Numbered from the stretch's first letter, positions 14,430 to 63,222 are shown. The stretch is DNA of 64,000 bases from Bdellovibrionales bacterium (GCA_965203275.1 OZ241865.1:1184001-1248000), one strand, 5' to 3'. The notes: generated by a model from the letters alone, not told the origin. Numbers and translations: made by a program.

Positions 14430-15297
14430 GGTTCACTAAAAGTGGTCTAGCCGTCATTTTCACTCAAAATGAACAAGCTTTTGAGGTAGCCAGCCTTTGA
14501 TCGACGACGACAGCCAAAAGGTGTAAGAAAGAACTTTTTCCTTAACATGAAGTTAAGGGACGAAGGGATCCTCCCAACTAAAAGTGGTCAAGCTTTCTAG
14601 GCAATGACCATTTTGCCAACGTGAAGTAAACATCTTGTTTCCTTAACATGAAGTAAAAAAATGAGGACATCCTTCTTCCTAAAATTGAACAAGCTTTTGA
14701 GGGAGTTAGCCTTTGATCGACGACGACAGTCGTCGGGCTAACTGGTATTAAAAGGATATTTTCCTTAACATGTAGTCAAAAAACGAAGAGATCCTCCTCT
14801 ACTCAAAATGCATAGATTTTTGAGGCAATGACCATTTTGCCAATGGCGAAAGCCATTGCGGTCAAAAGATGTAAGAAGGAACTTTTTCCTTAACATGGTG
14901 TTAAGAGACGAGAGGATCCTCCTCTACTAAAAGTAAACGGACTTTTGAGGTTGCCAGCATTTGAGAAGGCGAATAGCCTTCGGCTGGCAATCCAAAAGTG
15001 ACCAGAGGTCAGTTTACTTTTAGTGAAACAGAGGTTGGTTTACTTTTAGTGAAACAACTCATTTTGAGTGAAAGTGAAAAGGTTTGATTAAATACAGAAA
15101 TAGTCTAAAAAACAAGATAATTAACCAAACCATCCCAGAATTGATTCTTTTTCCTTAACATCGTGTTAAGAAATGAGGAGATCCTCCTTCCTAAAATTGA
15201 ACAAGCTTTTGAGGCAGTTAGCCTTTGATCGACGGCGAAAGCCGTCGGGCTAACTGCTCAAAAGTAGCCAGAGGCTAGTTCAATTTTAGGGAAACAA
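14430..15297 (+). repeat. cluster of modular hairpin repeats (5 palindrome boxes)
   Basis: Repeated CCTTAACA-N3-TGTTAAG-type box plus nested hairpins; complete units at ~14886-15029 and ~15151-15296. Confidence 0.9.
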
Positions 15298-15304
15298 ATG
15301 ACTC

Positions 15305-15877
15305 CTAACCTGCTTTTTGGCCTGTCAGGGCCTGTATGATCCAGTTTTTTTTTATGGCCAACACTAGCTCATGGGTTTGTTGAGTGGCTTTTTTCTGAGT
15401 TATTTGGTCTTCAGACAATTGGTGAATCAATTCATTAGTGGCCTTTTTTTGGATTGCTTGGTCTTCAGATAATTGGTGAACTAGCTCATGGGTTTGTTGA
15501 GTGGCTTTTTTTGGAGTTATTTGGTCTTCAGATAATTGGTGAACTAGCTCATGGGTTTGTTGAGTGGCTTTTTTTTGAGTTATTTGGTCTTCAGATAATT
15601 GGTGAACTAGCTCATGGGTTTGTTGAGTGGCTTTTTTCTGAGTTATTTGGTCTTCAGATAATTGGTGAACTAGCTCATGGGTTTGTTGAGTGGCTTTTTT
15701 CTGAGTTATTTGGTCTTCGGATAATTGGTGAATCAATTCATTAGTTTTTTGGGTGGTACTCTCTTGAATGGTGAGTCTTGTTTCCATTTCAGTTTGTTTT
15801 TTTTGAATCTCTTTTTGATTCTCTAAACTTTGAGTAATCTTTTGATTGATCTCTGTGAGTATTTTATTGACATCCAT
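15305..15877 (-). CDS. coiled-coil protein with 21-aa tandem repeats
   Basis: About six 63-bp units encoding LVHQLSEDQITQKKATQQTHE; AGGGG RBS. Confidence 0.7.
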   Translation of the reverse strand: MDVNKILTEINQKITQSLENQKEIQKKQTEMETRLTIQESTTQKTNELIHQLSEDQITQKKATQQTHELVHQLSEDQITQKKATQQTHELVHQLSEDQITQKKATQQTHELVHQLSEDQITPKKATQQTHELVHQLSEDQAIQKKATNELIHQLSEDQITQKKATQQTHELVLAIKKNWIIQALTGQKAG

Positions 15878-16069
15878 TTTTAAAAACCCCTTTTTTATTT
15901 AGATTAAATTGTTTATATATTTTTATAAATAACACTATAAGTATACTTATCAAAATATTATAACATATCAAGTCTTTTTTGCAATATTTTTTTTAAGAGG
16001 CTTTAAATGTAACACAACCTATTGAAATTTAAGGAGAAATCTTACAAATGTGATGGCAAAGGGGTTTGG

Positions 16070-16314
16070 TTCACTAAAAGTGGTTGGCTCACTAAAAGTA
16101 AACCAACCTCTGGTTGCTTTTGGACATTGCTCTGACAGCTCTCGCTGTCTAAAAAGAGCAATGTCTCAAAAGTCCGTTTACTTTTAGTAGAGGAGGATCC
16201 CACTGCCTCTTAACACCATGTTAAGGAAACAAGATATTTATTCCCGGGATCCGGCAAGCAGGCATCCCGGGAACTGATGCCTGACTGCCGGGTTGCCGGA
16301 TCCCAGATCCCGGG
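16070..16314 (-). repeat. hairpin repeat unit plus GATCCGG-type heptamer tract
   Basis: Reverse-oriented full unit ~16088-16230 and GC-rich tract 16243-16314. Confidence 0.9.
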
Positions 16315-16331
16315 AAAAATCAAATTTAACT

Positions 16332-60461: not shown

Positions 60462-60520
60462 ATCTGAGTAAATCTGAGTAAATCTGAGTAAAAAGAACAA
60501 AGCAAAATGGGATATTTAAG

Positions 60521-61075
60521 ATGCAGCTCCTTCCTAAAAGTCCATGTCTTTTGGTGTATGAAACAAAACATATCTCGCAAGGATATTTATCCGTCAATAC
60601 CTTGTTAGAGAACTTTGATATTCATATTTTAGAAGCCAGCCCTATTGCCCCTGGACGACTGATGGTTCTAGCTAATCCTATAGCTGAAGATTTAAGAAAA
60701 GCTTTTACGATGATTCGAACGCAATATAGAAAGCATCTGGTGGATATAGCTATGATGGAACAAATGCAAAAAGAAACCCTTTTAGCTTTTTATGCTCTCA
60801 ATCAAACGCCACTTCAAGATATGTTATTAGTGATAGAAACGCCTTCTGTGGCATCTGCTTTAAATATTGTCAATGGTTTGAAAGTTCAAAATTTAATTGC
60901 TCCTATTGAAGTGAGGTCTTCCCGTAGTTTAGCAGGTAAGTCCTTAGTGTATGCTACTTTGACAAAATCTTGCCAATCAGAAGTCGAAACATTTTTAGCC
61001 CTGCAAAAACCCATACATGATTTTGATTTTGCATTGATTTCTTCTAATCATGCTTATTGGCGTACCTTCTTCTAA
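60521..61075 (+). CDS. divergent tandem BMC-domain (PduT-like) protein
   Basis: ILEASPIAPGRLMVL and LLVIET.SVASAL...IEVR....LAGKS motifs. Confidence 0.55.
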   Translation: MQLLPKSPCLLVYETKHISQGYLSVNTLLENFDIHILEASPIAPGRLMVLANPIAEDLRKAFTMIRTQYRKHLVDIAMMEQMQKETLLAFYALNQTPLQDMLLVIETPSVASALNIVNGLKVQNLIAPIEVRSSRSLAGKSLVYATLTKSCQSEVETFLALQKPIHDFDFALISSNHAYWRTFF

Positions 61076-61416
61076 TCTCACTCAAAATGCATCATGCCTC
61101 TGGTGTGTTTTTGGGCAATCAGCCCGACGGCTACCGCCGTCGATCAAAGGCTGATTGCCTCAAAAATCCGCTCATTTTGAGTAGGGAGGATCTCCTCGTT
61201 TTTTAACACCATGTTAAGGAAAAAGTTCCTTCATCACCAATGGCAACCTAGAAAGCTTGACCACTTTTAGTAGGGAGGATACCCTCATTTCTTAACACGA
61301 TGTTAAGGAAACAAGATGTTTACTTCACGTTGGTAAAATGGTCATCGCCTAGAAAGCTTGACCACTTTTAGTAGAAAGGATCCTTTCCTCTTTTAACATG
61401 ATGTTAAGGAAACAAG
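61076..61416 (-). repeat. hairpin repeat cluster (3 boxes)
   Basis: Reverse units starting immediately after the upstream stop codon. Confidence 0.9.
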
Positions 61417-61957
61417 GTATTTGTTTTTATGGATTTCTTTGAAAAGGTAAGGAATTTAGGTTTGGAAATTAGAATTTCAGTGATTTCAATAAGTTAATAT
61501 TGTGACTTTTGTATAAAAGTTACAGTATTAAGTGTTTGTAATTGTTAGACTTTTTTAGGTCGACTTTAGAAATTTCTAATTTTTCGTCTAACACAATTCT
61601 TATCGTTTATTATGACATAAAACTTTATATTTTTGTTAAAAAAAATCAAAAAAAGTTACATTTTGTATCAAAAAGAATCACTTTTTTTAATTTTTGTATC
61701 ATCTTGAAACACTTTACTAATCTTAAAGACATAAGATCAGTGAAATAAGTAGCGATTTTTAATTCGTGTTTGATAACTTTTGATTTGTTTGACTTTTCAA
61801 AACAATTTTCTTGCAAAAAACTGTCTGTTTTTTACTCTTTCAAATTGTGACTTTTATACAAAAGTTACAGTGCTAAGTCCTTGAAATCACTAAGGGCATT
61901 TTTTTGTACTCTCTAAAAGTATAGAGACAGATCAATGAGGTTAGGTGGTTTCAGTTG

Positions 61958-63222
61958 CTTTCACTAAAAGTGGTCTAGCCTCTGTTTCACTCAAAGTGAA
62001 CTGGCCTCTGGCCACTTTTGGACAATGACCGCAACGGCTTTCGCCGTTGACAAAATGGTCATTGTCTCAAAAGCCTGTTCACTTTGAGTAGGGAGGATCC
62101 CTTCGTCCCTTAACTCCATGTTAAGGAAAATGTCCTTCTAATGGCAGTTAGCCCGATGGCTATCGCCATCGATCAAAGGCTAACTGCCTCAAAAGCTTGT
62201 TCAATTTTAGGAAGGAGGACCTCCTCGTCTCTTGACCACATGTTAAGGAAACAAGATTTCCTTCTGATGTTTGCTCTGACAGCTTACGCTGTCTAAAAAG
62301 AGCAATGCCGCAAAAAACTGCTCATTTTGAGTAGGGAGGATCTCCTCATTTTTTAACATAATGTTAGGGAAACAAGATGTTTAGCCTGACGGCTACCGCC
62401 GTCGGTAAAATGGTCATCGCCTAGAAAGCTTGACCACTTTTAGTAGGGAGGATACCCTCATTTCTTAACACAATGTTAAGGAAACAAAATGCCTTTTCTG
62501 CCTGATGCCCTCAAAAGTCCGTTTATTTTTAGTAGGAAGAATCCTCTTGTCTCTTTACCACATGTTAAGGAAACAAGATGTTTATTTCACGTCGATAAAA
62601 TGGTCATCGCCTCATTTGATTTTCACTAAAAGCAAACCAGCCTCTGGCTGCTTTTGGACATTGCTCTGACAGCTATCGCTGTCTAAAAAGAGCAATGTCT
62701 CAAAAGTCCGTTTACTTTTAGTAAGGAAGGATCTCTTCGTCTTTTAACATGATGTTAAGGAAAAAATTCCTTCATCACCGATGGCAACCTAGTGTTGTTA
62801 CATGGCAAGCTTCAGAGAAGCTTGCTGTCTGACCACTTTTAGTAGGAAGGATTCTTTCCTCTTTTAACACCATGTTAAGGAAAATATCCTTCTAATAACA
62901 GTTAGTCCGACGGCTCACGCCGTCGATAAAATGGTCATCGCCTCAAAAGTCCGTTTACTTTTAGTAGGAAGGATCTCTTCGTCTCTTGACCACATGTTAA
63001 GGAAAAAGTTCCTTCTTGCACCTTGGGTGTTGCCTGCAAAGGCTTTCGCCTTTGACAAAATAGGCAACATCTAAAAAACTGCTCATTTTGAGTAGGGAGG
63101 ATCCTTTCCTCTTTTGACACGATGTTAAGGAAAAAGTTCCTTTTTACACCTTTTTCCTGCAACGGCTTTCGCCATTGGCAAAATGGTCATTGCCTCAAAA
63201 ATCTATGCATTTTGAGTGAAAA
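61958..63222 (-). repeat. largest hairpin repeat cluster (9 boxes)
   Basis: Head-to-tail reverse units with differing inner hairpins. Confidence 0.92.

Follow-up and report, generated by a model that had tools for sequence, protein, structure and literature searches.

A three-armed hairpin repeat that makes up 6.2% of a Bdellovibrionales genome is probably a selfish DNA element

The 64,000-nucleotide stretch of DNA analysed here (the window; GCA_965203275.1 OZ241865.1:1184001-1248000) contains many copies of a non-coding repeat unit of ~150 bp. This unit is probably a non-autonomous selfish DNA element of the bacterial hairpin-repeat kind, as are REP/REPIN, BIME and MITE sequences. It differs from REP- and MITE-type repeats in its unusual three-armed fold, the absence of a known copying enzyme and a close association with a small gene that is otherwise known from hairpin inserts in ribosomal RNA. 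The source of the window (G000 in our comparisons) is a reduced, ankyrin-rich 2.57 Mb genome, with an estimated completeness of 90%, from an uncultured, host-associated relative of the Bdellovibrionales.

Each unit has a palindromic box, a palindrome centred on GGATCC and a three-way hairpin ending in GAAAC. The parts of one full unit serve as the reference:

15147-15298, plus strand: reference full unit (from sequence, an HMM match to profile positions 2-153, folding and a CM score of 174.5 bits)
15153-15170, plus strand: box
15175-15187, plus strand: palindrome around GATC
15190-15202 with 15278-15290, plus strand: helix H1
15206-15213 with 15257-15264, plus strand: helix H2
15215-15223 with 15248-15256, plus strand: helix H3
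15230-15236 with 15241-15247, plus strand: helix H4, loop GAAA
15265-15269 with 15273-15277, plus strand: helix H5, loop AGA
15291-15295, plus strand: tail GAAAC

An earlier note on this sequence had quoted four pairs of outer arms, and all four were found where it had placed them (units at 15147, 14882, 31006 and 52223); the small-hairpin and inner stems that it quoted are also present. Two helices have to be added to the order of elements that it proposed, CTTTTGAG/CTCAAAAG and an apical 7-bp stem. Its purine run-GATCCTC is itself a palindrome. In the box it is the sequence that is conserved, with no covariation.

A two-round nhmmer profile gave 50 non-overlapping matches in the window between 14453 and 63227, consisting of 21 full and 29 partial units in 14 clusters, in agreement with the count by eye of ~40 in ~14 clusters. 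Many of the partial units are copies interrupted by later copies. Together the units occupy 5,738 bp (9%) of the window. The box, CCTTAACA-N3-TGTTAAG, had 63 matches with up to two mismatches, both strands counted, compared with 0.25 expected, and none of 100 shuffles reached 63. The units and the genes beside them are as follows:

14453-15031, plus strand: array of four 3'-truncated units and one full unit, with short 3' remnants to ~15080 (sequence, HMM)
14453-14515, 14534-14621, 14636-14745 and 14759-14864, plus strand: the 3'-truncated units of this array (HMM)
14882-15031, plus strand: the full unit of this array (HMM)
16084-16231, minus strand: full unit on the 3' side of the S23p/IVP gene, with a GC-rich G-module before it at ~16240-16330 (HMM)
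16332-16637, minus strand: S23p/IVP four-helix-bundle gene with a unit on each side (PF05635, E 6.6e-15)
16775-16925, minus strand: full unit 5' of the IVP gene (HMM)
19970-20090, plus strand: box-less form, two inverted 3' halves around an inner hairpin (HMM 40-149, both strands score)
27708-28890, minus strand: array of 10 matches, with full units at 27708-27861, 28042-28190 and 28548-28726, the last with an internal insert (HMM)
30876-31157, plus strand: truncated and full unit directly after the stop of a chaperonin (Cpn60/GroEL-type) gene (HMM, gene annotation)
34906-35051, minus strand: solitary full unit (HMM)
36042-36189, plus strand: solitary full unit with chimeric outer arms (HMM, sequence)
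37727-38037, plus strand: two truncated units and a full unit at 37886-38037 (HMM)
48016-48957, plus strand: three-unit cluster in two copies, 48016-48459 and 48514-48957, with units 1 and 2 identical and unit 3 different (HMM, sequence)
48460-48513, plus strand: G-module joining the two copies (HMM, sequence)
51534-51978, plus strand: third copy of this cluster, beyond an 829-aa multi-HTH gene, the third unit again different (HMM)
52223-52533, plus strand: full unit and two 5'-truncated remnants (HMM)
61076-61414, minus strand: full unit whose small hairpin consists of two different alleles, and two truncated units (HMM, sequence)
61981-63227, minus strand: array of 11 matches ending beside the Rpn-like gene (HMM)
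63237-64000, minus strand: Rpn-like PD-(D/E)XK gene, whole ORF 365 aa, continuing past the window end (PF04754)

The whole genome has 1,334 unit matches, 743 of them full, dispersed over ~360 separate intergenic regions. Only two matches lie mostly within chosen ORFs and the rest are intergenic, in agreement with the REP/BIME/MITE-like distribution claimed earlier. Public contigs assembled from short reads of such symbionts are broken by units, and those compared with the window end there.

The fold of the unit is strongly conserved. The reference unit folds at -70.3 kcal/mol compared with -34.5 +/- 3.8 for shuffles (z -9.4), and similar values were obtained for the opposite strand (z -9.2) and with DNA parameters (z -9.9). 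Among 18 window units, 92.1% of cells pair, and both sides change in 23 of 49 pairs compared with 1-4 in slid-partner controls; none of 500 shuffles reached the score. An alignment of 50 distinct rows from this genome and two related genomes gave 92.0% pairing, and two-sided changes were seen in 32 of 49 pairs compared with 4-8 in slid controls. In 547 of the 743 full copies, H1, H2 and H5 are all perfectly complementary. Each helix exists as 5-9 discrete alleles with both arms matching, and in most comparisons the arms of one helix are more strongly linked to each other (0.59-0.83) than neighbouring unpaired segments are (0.47-0.64). In a sister species and in another genus the units have other stem sequences but the same fold and loop motifs. 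The fixed parts are the 5' box and the loop and junction motifs CCAGAGG, CTTTTGAGG and GAAAC. These data support a constraint on the fold, as the earlier note had proposed for a branched structure. Because the covarying changes represent a few shared alleles, independent covariation events are far fewer than the cell counts, and arm-against-arm correction in a folded hairpin would yield matched stems without selection.

The full units are diverse, with 676 distinct sequences among the 743. Only 115 share their exact sequence with another copy (largest such group, seven), which gives no indication of a recent burst. Helix alleles occur in new combinations from copy to copy, and the chimeras break at hairpin loops. 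H1 is imperfect in 164 units, 88 of which are chimeras of two major alleles.

The units have two unlike ends. The 3' junction is exact, directly after GAAAC plus 3-4 bases, and does not vary between hundreds of unrelated sites, some of them in unique DNA and in genes. The 5' side is ragged or open and may be followed outward by nothing, a short AGAAGGA-type linker, the GC-rich module, an S23p/IVP gene or an inverted second unit. No T-run follows the hairpin on either strand. Of 914 unit 3' ends, 138 have AGAGG after them. In 245 of the 743 full units the flanks rejoin into an older unit, and 75 of these nested junctions are in the H5 loop. A further 49 are on the other strand at positions 60-63, and in each of the 18 examples listed the older unit resumes at the H5 loop or immediately beyond it. 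Inverted dimers and single units split Rpn-like ORFs, and a block of GC-rich module plus unit is missing from a paralogous site. One intact loop insertion and four filled/empty comparisons were free of any visible target duplication; three of these comparisons have 15-16 target bases replaced and not simply split, and a truly clean empty site in unique DNA was not found. Contigs from four public runs on 19500-39000 end at units and have no readable insertion polymorphism; where contig joints skip a unit (34895>35058, 28547>28729), the sides are only 20-28 letters or unknown letters lie between. Genes of genome G001 are 67-81% identical to those of this genome and scattered, which leaves no orthologous site for an empty-site comparison. 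Movement itself was not observed.

Units and genes in tandem intergenic regions point in the same direction 377 times and in opposite directions 334 times, and the strand balance across genome bins, summed by hand, looks even with no replichore bias seen. Because the units nest in older loops, form inverted dimers inside genes and have no bias of transcription or replication direction, they look like selfish DNA. We considered whether they are instead functional RNA modules transcribed with neighbouring genes, such as RNase III processing or stability elements or small RNAs. The strong conserved fold and its covariation across genera would fit this, as would three units between rpsQ and rplN in genome G004, which are in gene direction and very probably transcribed. 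The associated IVP gene family is also known from hairpin inserts in 23S rRNA that are excised by RNase III, according to the available text of PMC4990558. However, RNA modules would not be expected to lack a gene-orientation preference or to fold equally well on both strands. Mismatches on the unit strand have no excess of G-T (284) over A-C (397), although this is partly an alignment artefact since ~167 A-C cells belong to one length-variant allele misaligned in H4. Insertion of the units into one another, truncation and the disruption of genes are characteristic of DNA elements, the copy number and 676 within-genome variants are unlike an RNA gene family, and Rfam gave no match at the gathering threshold over the whole window. 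We therefore regard RNA modules as improbable.

The selfish-element reading can be made more specific. A structure-specific protein may recognise the folded single strand or a cruciform and cut at the GAAAC end, which would explain why the fold and loops are kept and the stem sequences are not. The mobile entity would be defined from its 3' end or ends, and recombination at the conserved linkers could make the mosaic units. We also considered that no dedicated enzyme is involved and that the units spread by host replication and repair (template switching at stalled hairpins, unequal crossing-over and gene conversion), with arm-against-arm correction keeping the stems matched. The mosaic alleles and loop-broken chimeras, the replaced target bases, the negative searches for a transposase and the tandem arrays (147-bp period in this genome, 235-bp repeats in G001) are what such a process might leave. 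It accounts poorly for an exact, constant 3' boundary at hundreds of unrelated sites, for a strong insertion preference for one 3-base loop, and for the conservation of loop and junction motifs between genera with changing stems, a pattern that speaks for recognition by a protein. It is also hard to see how local slippage alone could reach ~360 separate intergenic regions. Spread by the host machinery alone is thus improbable.

As a partner, the earlier note had suggested an HUH/RAYT enzyme; PF01797 (Y1/RAYT) had no match at E <= 0.01 in this genome, and the same profile, as a control, matched in 6 of 14 genomes. The reverse transcriptase also suggested was not found in this genome, nor was IS110. 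A Y2 transposase profile had no match, although its control likewise matched in no genome. The transposase-type families present are IS256-like (9 copies), DDE_Tnp_1 (3) and resolvase (6). Units lie within 150 bp upstream of 22% and downstream of 11% of the IS256-like copies, which are thus not unit-associated, and no parent insertion sequence with unit ends was found. The units are set apart from IS200/IS605-derived elements (PATE, omega-RNA scaffolds) by the lack of Y1 and of visible replichore bias, and by a single Cas12f/TnpB-type (PF07282) match that lies inside a 1,365-aa frame. Integron attC sites differ in that this genome has only two PF00589 genes and its units, arranged head to tail or nested, have no ORFs separating them. 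A two-gene multi-copy cassette beside units (17651-19754 in the window) was rejected: one gene is ankyrin-like, the other has no family, and neither has a nuclease or recombinase signature. Unit neighbours in G004 were rejected as an enzyme source as well, being housekeeping genes (NifU-like, HhH-GPD glycosylase, RecG, ribosomal proteins and an R-M pair). G004 has few units, and one Rpn-like gene 3.5 kb away.

We also considered that the units form an ordinary REP/REPIN system and that its RAYT transposase was lost or escaped detection. They are extragenic hairpin repeats with compensated stems, and their inverted dimers resemble REPINs. However, the PF01797 result comes from a genome that is ~90% complete, the unit is three-armed and 150 nt long rather than a palindrome of 20-40 nt, and a family that persists in two genera at hundreds to thousands of copies would be expected to have a partner that still works. 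We consider this explanation very improbable.

The other two kinds of gene suggested earlier as partners, Rpn and a four-helix-bundle protein, do occur next to units. The gene family that correlates best with the repeat is S23p/IVP, with 11-14 copies in this genome. A unit is present at 14 of 14 IVP loci here, compared with 28% of random windows, and at 12 of 18 in G001. Within the family, the three genomes with the repeat have 14, 18 and 15 IVP genes and the two without it have none. Relative to the unit, the PF05635 genes lie on the side of the box, and inverted units enclose the gene at 3 of 18 loci in G001 and about 2 of 11 here. At the IVP locus examined in G004 there was no unit nearby, and 11 genomes of other families in which no unit was found likewise carry IVP genes. 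Rpn (YhgA-like, Transposase_31) proteins, which we take to be recombination-promoting nucleases and 'putative transposases', are the only expanded nuclease family and correlate less well. The link holds in this genome only, where 13 of 16 Rpn-like loci are embedded in unit arrays and many copies are broken by units; it breaks down in G003, where there are 16 genes and no units, and G001 supports it weakly, with a unit at 5 of 18 loci. The S23p four-helix-bundle protein is a relative of the DGR accessory protein Avd. The available text of PMC4990558 gives no known enzymatic activity for S23p/IVP proteins.

A tentative extension, which we think unlikely, is that units, GC-rich module and S23p/IVP gene are parts of a single IVS-like family of hairpin elements. 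This family would have moved out of the rRNA genes and spread over the genome, for the most part as gene-less miniatures. When complete, the element would consist of an inverted unit, the IVP gene and a unit, with the exact GAAAC ends outward. Neither a unit nor an IVP gene lies in the single 23S rDNA or within 300 bp of it. If this reading were true, the S23p protein would take part in moving or maintaining hairpin DNA, and the origin of rRNA intervening sequences would become experimentally approachable.

To our knowledge, every bacterial hairpin repeat whose mechanism is known relies either on a Y1 (RAYT/IS200) enzyme or on a parent insertion sequence. The present family takes up 6% of a reduced genome, nests in itself and keeps its fold across genera. 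Because neither a Y1 enzyme nor a parent insertion sequence was found, it points to an undescribed way of copying folded DNA, for which the S23p/IVP protein and the Rpn 'putative transposases' are two concrete candidates.

The family was not recognised in the earlier note, and we found no unit match in plasmid and phage collections and no description in the literature searched. A metagenome scan gave 50 box-motif loci, none with a full unit (best CM score 23 bits). Among known repeats, MITEs such as Correia elements and Rickettsia palindromic elements are 100-170 bp long and occur in hundreds of copies in host-associated bacteria. The units share this size and abundance with them and are likewise non-coding. 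By contrast, the unit monomer has unlike ends, only inverted dimers having matching outer ends, with no target duplication or parent insertion sequence seen, and the units do not form part of proteins (2 of 1,334 lie inside ORFs). BIME and BOX-type mosaic repeats of enterobacteria and pneumococci also combine modules variously and cluster between genes, whereas the modules of the unit are concentric helices of one fold, not linear boxes, and are unrelated in sequence. Rpn nucleases are multi-copy 'putative transposases' without a defined element, and in this genome they are embedded in unit arrays. A REPIN is two inverted REPs, and the RAYT gene is typically flanked by repeats. REP/REPIN sequences with RAYT (TnpA-REP), the subject of PMC3116915 and PMC8266576, resemble the units in being extragenic, very abundant and hairpin-forming with compensated stems, in persisting in a lineage, in having inverted pairs and in being thought to be recognised as folded DNA. 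The units differ in their length (150 nt against ~20-40 nt for the short REP palindrome), their three-way junction with five helices, their interchangeable helix alleles, their nesting in loops, their one exact and one ragged end, and a genome in which no Y1 transposase was found. The 23S rRNA IVS of Coxiella, as far as described in the available text of PMC4990558, is a selfish hairpin that carries an S23p/PF05635 gene in the loop of a long stem built from its terminal inverted repeats; the units lie outside rRNA genes and have more than a thousand copies without a gene. Some insertion sequences are likewise aimed at hairpin repeats, in their case REP hairpins (PMC1525189), but here the inserting element is the hairpin repeat itself and carries no transposase.

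Two rounds of nhmmer started from the repeat unit at 15147-15298 gave 2,091 raw matches, and 1,334 were left once overlaps were removed, most of which arose from palindromic DNA matched on each strand. These copies, of which 743 are full length with 676 distinct sequences among them, occupy 158,573 bp or 6.2% of the genome. Of these copies, 50 (21 full) lie in the window between 14453 and 63227, where they form 14 clusters and cover 5,738 bp. This bears out the abundant family in about 14 clusters that an earlier note had described by eye, and every arm pair quoted in that note is present at its position. 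The box, a conserved 5' palindromic motif of the unit, matched 63 times in the window with both strands counted, compared with 0.25 expected, and 778 + 788 times on the two strands of the genome. As a palindrome, the box scores on both strands at most of its sites. One solitary box, not followed by a unit, lies at 3727-3771 between greA and an ankyrin gene, and its left half is directly repeated just before it (ATGCTCTCTCCTTAACAT twice).

The genome is represented by a single contig of 2,567,810 bp with 35.1% G+C and an estimated completeness of 90%, and its largest paralogous family consists of ankyrin-repeat genes (88 ORFs). The organism is probably an uncultured, host-associated relative of Bdellovibrio. 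For the stretch 19500-39000 of the window, contigs identical to it over as much as 6.1 kb came from runs whose labels name two organisms, A and B, and a variant about 1% different was found in another sample of organism A. A 190-aa ORF at 15305-15877 (-) lies over perfect tandem 60-nt DNA repeats. It is a member of multi-copy coiled-coil families, each with 28-31 ORFs and weak apolipoprotein-like matches.

In its own orientation, the unit runs 5' to 3' from a T-rich start through the box, a purine run and a three-way hairpin to the tail, with the following parts:

15147-15298 (+), reference unit
Box, an inverted repeat of 7-8 bp around 3 bases
Purine run, centred on GGATCC, itself a palindrome
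H1, outer stem of the three-way hairpin, 13 bp
H2, H3 and H4, the long arm, 8 bp, 9 bp and 7 bp respectively, with GAAA as the H4 loop
H5, the third arm, a small hairpin of 5-6 bp with loop AGA within an invariant CC-AGA-GG
Tail, GAAAC plus 3-4 bases, which is the unit end

This fold is far stabler than that of shuffled sequence, with z from -9.2 to -9.9 on either strand and with RNA or DNA parameters. Among 18 window units, 92.1% of cells pair and 23 of the 49 pairs changed on both sides, compared with 1-4 in six slid controls, and none of 500 shuffles reached the covariation score. The stems thus vary as matched pairs, as expected from the proposal in the earlier note that structure and not sequence is conserved. 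Across the 743 full units, each helix exists as a few discrete alleles with matching arms. H1, which has nine common alleles, is perfectly complementary in 579 units, H2 in 683 and H5 in 700, and all three are perfect at once in 547. H1 is imperfect in 164 units, and in 88 of these the left and right arms come from different common alleles, which makes them recombinants and not decayed stems. Because the alleles are common to many copies, there are few independent covariation events, and correction of one arm against the other within the hairpin would give the same pattern of matched stems.

Linkage between paired arms, measured as bias-corrected mutual information, was 0.59 for H1, whose arms are separated by 90 nt, 0.69 for H2 and H3, and 0.83 for H5, compared with 0.47-0.64 for neighbouring unpaired segments. 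Association between segments therefore follows the fold more than linear distance. The box and the palindrome are nearly unlinked to the remaining unit (0.07-0.22).

A BLAST search of 41 genomes of the order with a single unit as query gave matches only in the own genome, in a genome of the same genus (G001) and in one of another genus of the same family, f1 (G004). With R1, a covariance model of the unit, all 150 scored candidates matched in G001 and 12 matched in G004, and 0 of 150 scored candidates matched in each of two other f1 genomes, G002 and G003. Box counts gave the same picture, with 218 + 221 in G001 compared with 3 and 5 in controls, 9 + 5 in G004 and control levels in G002 and G003. 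The G001 and G004 units retain the architecture and the single-stranded motifs with different stem sequences, and the palindrome at their centre has GAGTC/GAATC as its core where units of the own genome have GGATCC. A joint alignment of 50 distinct rows was fitted to the model, so that structure is somewhat favoured; in it 92.0% of cells pair and 32 of 49 pairs changed on both sides, compared with 4-8 when slid. The box helix shows no such covariation there, since 1 of its 7 pairs covaries and 78% of its cells pair. In G004, three full units lie in the gene direction between rpsQ (S17) and rplN (L14) at L096:6969-7655 (contig G004:C11), so units are tolerated within a core operon.

Several results point to a DNA element rather than an RNA gene. 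Units are intergenic, with 2 of 1,334 mostly within chosen ORFs, and the share of intergenic regions with a unit is 20% between tandem, 30% between divergent and 31% between convergent genes. Between tandem genes, 377 units run with the gene direction and 334 against it, and plus- and minus-strand units look balanced over genome bins summed by hand. Copies also disrupt one another and genes; many of the 53 ORF pieces of Rpn-like genes (PD-(D/E)XK nuclease family PF04754) are fragments split by one unit or an inverted pair. A search of Rfam with the window gave 0 matches, and no description of the family was found in open-access papers and bioRxiv, to which the literature searches were limited. 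The repeat is real, very abundant and under structural constraint, and it is best read as selfish DNA.

Of the 743 full units, 245 are nested in an older unit, with joined flanks that align to the unit model. In 75 of these the junction lies in the 3-base H5 loop, and a further 49 junctions mapped to positions 60-63 of the opposite strand, where all 18 examples examined resume at or just after the H5 loop. Junctions also gather, in smaller numbers, beside the apical hairpin H4. Independently of flank joining, a pattern search located 914 unit 3' ends, of which 138 run straight into AGAGG and 65 into the right half of a box. The latter group indicates that copies entered the box loop of a unit lying in inverted orientation.

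Units join their surroundings precisely on the 3' side and imprecisely on the 5' side. Upstream of the full units we found an AGAAGGA-type linker in 304 cases, a CATCTTG-type linker in 125, another unit's end in 71 and something else in 232, and 11 have no locatable box. When the target is an older unit, about 11 bases (the H2 right arm and H5 left arm) are usually absent on the 5' side. In one nesting case, the target is split precisely between CC and AGAGG, and no base of it is lost or duplicated. Four comparisons of filled and empty sites also showed no target duplication: two insertions into another hairpin repeat replaced 15 target bases, one replaced 16 bases resembling a unit's own 3' end, and in one the whole block of GC-rich module and unit is absent from the paralogous site. 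A third dispersed hairpin repeat occurs outside the window (G000:C1:1560137-1560339, 1914548-1914748 and 1337184-1337416 in the own genome; stem ATTGAGCTTGCT / AGCAAGCTCAAT), and in some of its copies a unit replaces the loop and right arm.

Rpn-like genes contain dimers of 342-378 bp in which two inverted units meet box to box, with outer ends that match (TTTGTTTCAC...GTGAAACAAA). The gene-proximal end of a unit is the GAAAC end more often than not: upstream of genes 149 units have the same direction and 33 the opposite, and downstream 151 are opposite and 86 the same. This orientation fits with clusters whose outer ends are GAAAC ends. From these junctions we infer that the GAAAC end or ends would define the element and its processing, and that box-side DNA of whatever kind may be carried along.

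One such neighbour is the GC-rich module of CCGGGATC- and CCGGCA-like words, which precedes 203 of 1,047 unit starts by at most 60 nt, often directly 5' of the unit. This module is a second repeat in the 35% G+C genome with about 350 loci (for example, 48460-48513 and 16240-16330 in the window), and it also flanks both sides of genes of the S23p/IVP four-helix-bundle family (PF05635).

The earlier note had proposed HUH/RAYT transposases, reverse transcriptases, Rpn and four-helix-bundle genes as partners. Searches with chosen Pfam families gave no match in the own genome for Y1/RAYT (control positive), RVT_1 or an IS110-type DEDD transposase, and the first two suggestions thus found no counterpart. 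The search for a Y2 transposase is uninformative, as its control matched nowhere. Two tyrosine recombinases are present, and a single match to PF07282 falls within a frame of 1,365 aa. The DNA enzymes among multi-copy ORF families are Rpn-like (53 ORF pieces, 16 profile matches), IS256-like (9), resolvase-like (6) and DDE_Tnp_1 (3). An 829-aa protein encoded at 49001-51490 (+) has many weak helix-turn-helix repeats (HTH_Tnp_Tc3_2, E 6.8e-24 summed; AbiEi_4; a weak IS3 N-terminal match), and its gene is bracketed by three copies of one three-unit cluster at 48016-48459, 48514-48957 and 51534-51978. A two-gene cassette at 17651-19754 (-), present in about 6-7 copies of 88-96% identity, ends against a unit; one product has 317-331 aa with a single ankyrin-like match and the other, of up to 556 aa, has no family.

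At a distance of up to 150 bp, a unit lies upstream of 53% and downstream of 70% of Rpn-like ORFs, compared with 11% and 15% for all 1,607 ORFs >150 aa, and 13 of 16 Rpn loci in the own genome hold a unit compared with about 30% of random windows. PF04754 is limited to f1 among the 41 genomes, with 16 matches in the own genome, 19 in G001, 16 in G003 and 1 in G004. The Rpn suggestion therefore holds in the own genome and fails in G003, which has Rpn-like genes without the repeat; in G001 just 5 of 18 Rpn loci hold a unit, and the paralogues have no unit at a fixed distance in common.

The four-helix-bundle suggestion fared better. All 14 IVP loci of the own genome hold a unit, compared with 28% of random windows, as do 12 of 18 in G001. 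Within f1, PF05635 matches number 14 in the own genome, 18 in G001, 15 in G004 and 0 in G002 and G003, a pattern that matches that of the repeat itself, down to the split within one genus (g3), among just five genomes, all of them kin. The layout in the own genome is IVP gene, short spacer, GC-rich module and unit, and unit alleles differ between these loci, so the association is not one duplicated block. At 3 of the 18 G001 loci the IVP gene lies between two inverted units with their box ends toward it. The G004 locus examined has no unit near its IVP gene, and 11 genomes of other families have IVP genes without a detected unit. A conserved inverted repeat (AAAAATTTCCTCC ... GGAGGAAATTTTT), with a likely ribosome-binding site in its right arm, is directly upstream of IVP genes in the own genome and G004 (window 16655-16700 (-) and L100:1746-1802). 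S23p/IVP thus fits better with the repeat than the Rpn-like genes do, and both are testable candidates for the enzyme. The S23p family has no known activity (PMC4990558).

The unit works like REP/REPIN, BIME and MITE elements, yet it does not pass the tests that define any of them. Together with the IVP gene, it resembles the S23p-bearing intervening sequences (IVSs) of 23S rRNA, exemplified by the Coxiella IVS, whose terminal stem of 28 bp encloses the S23p ORF in its loop and which is excised by RNase III (PMC4990558). The single 23S rDNA of the own genome contains neither a unit nor an IVP gene, so the unit family is not an IVS. Its likeness to the S23p-bearing IVS is new to us.
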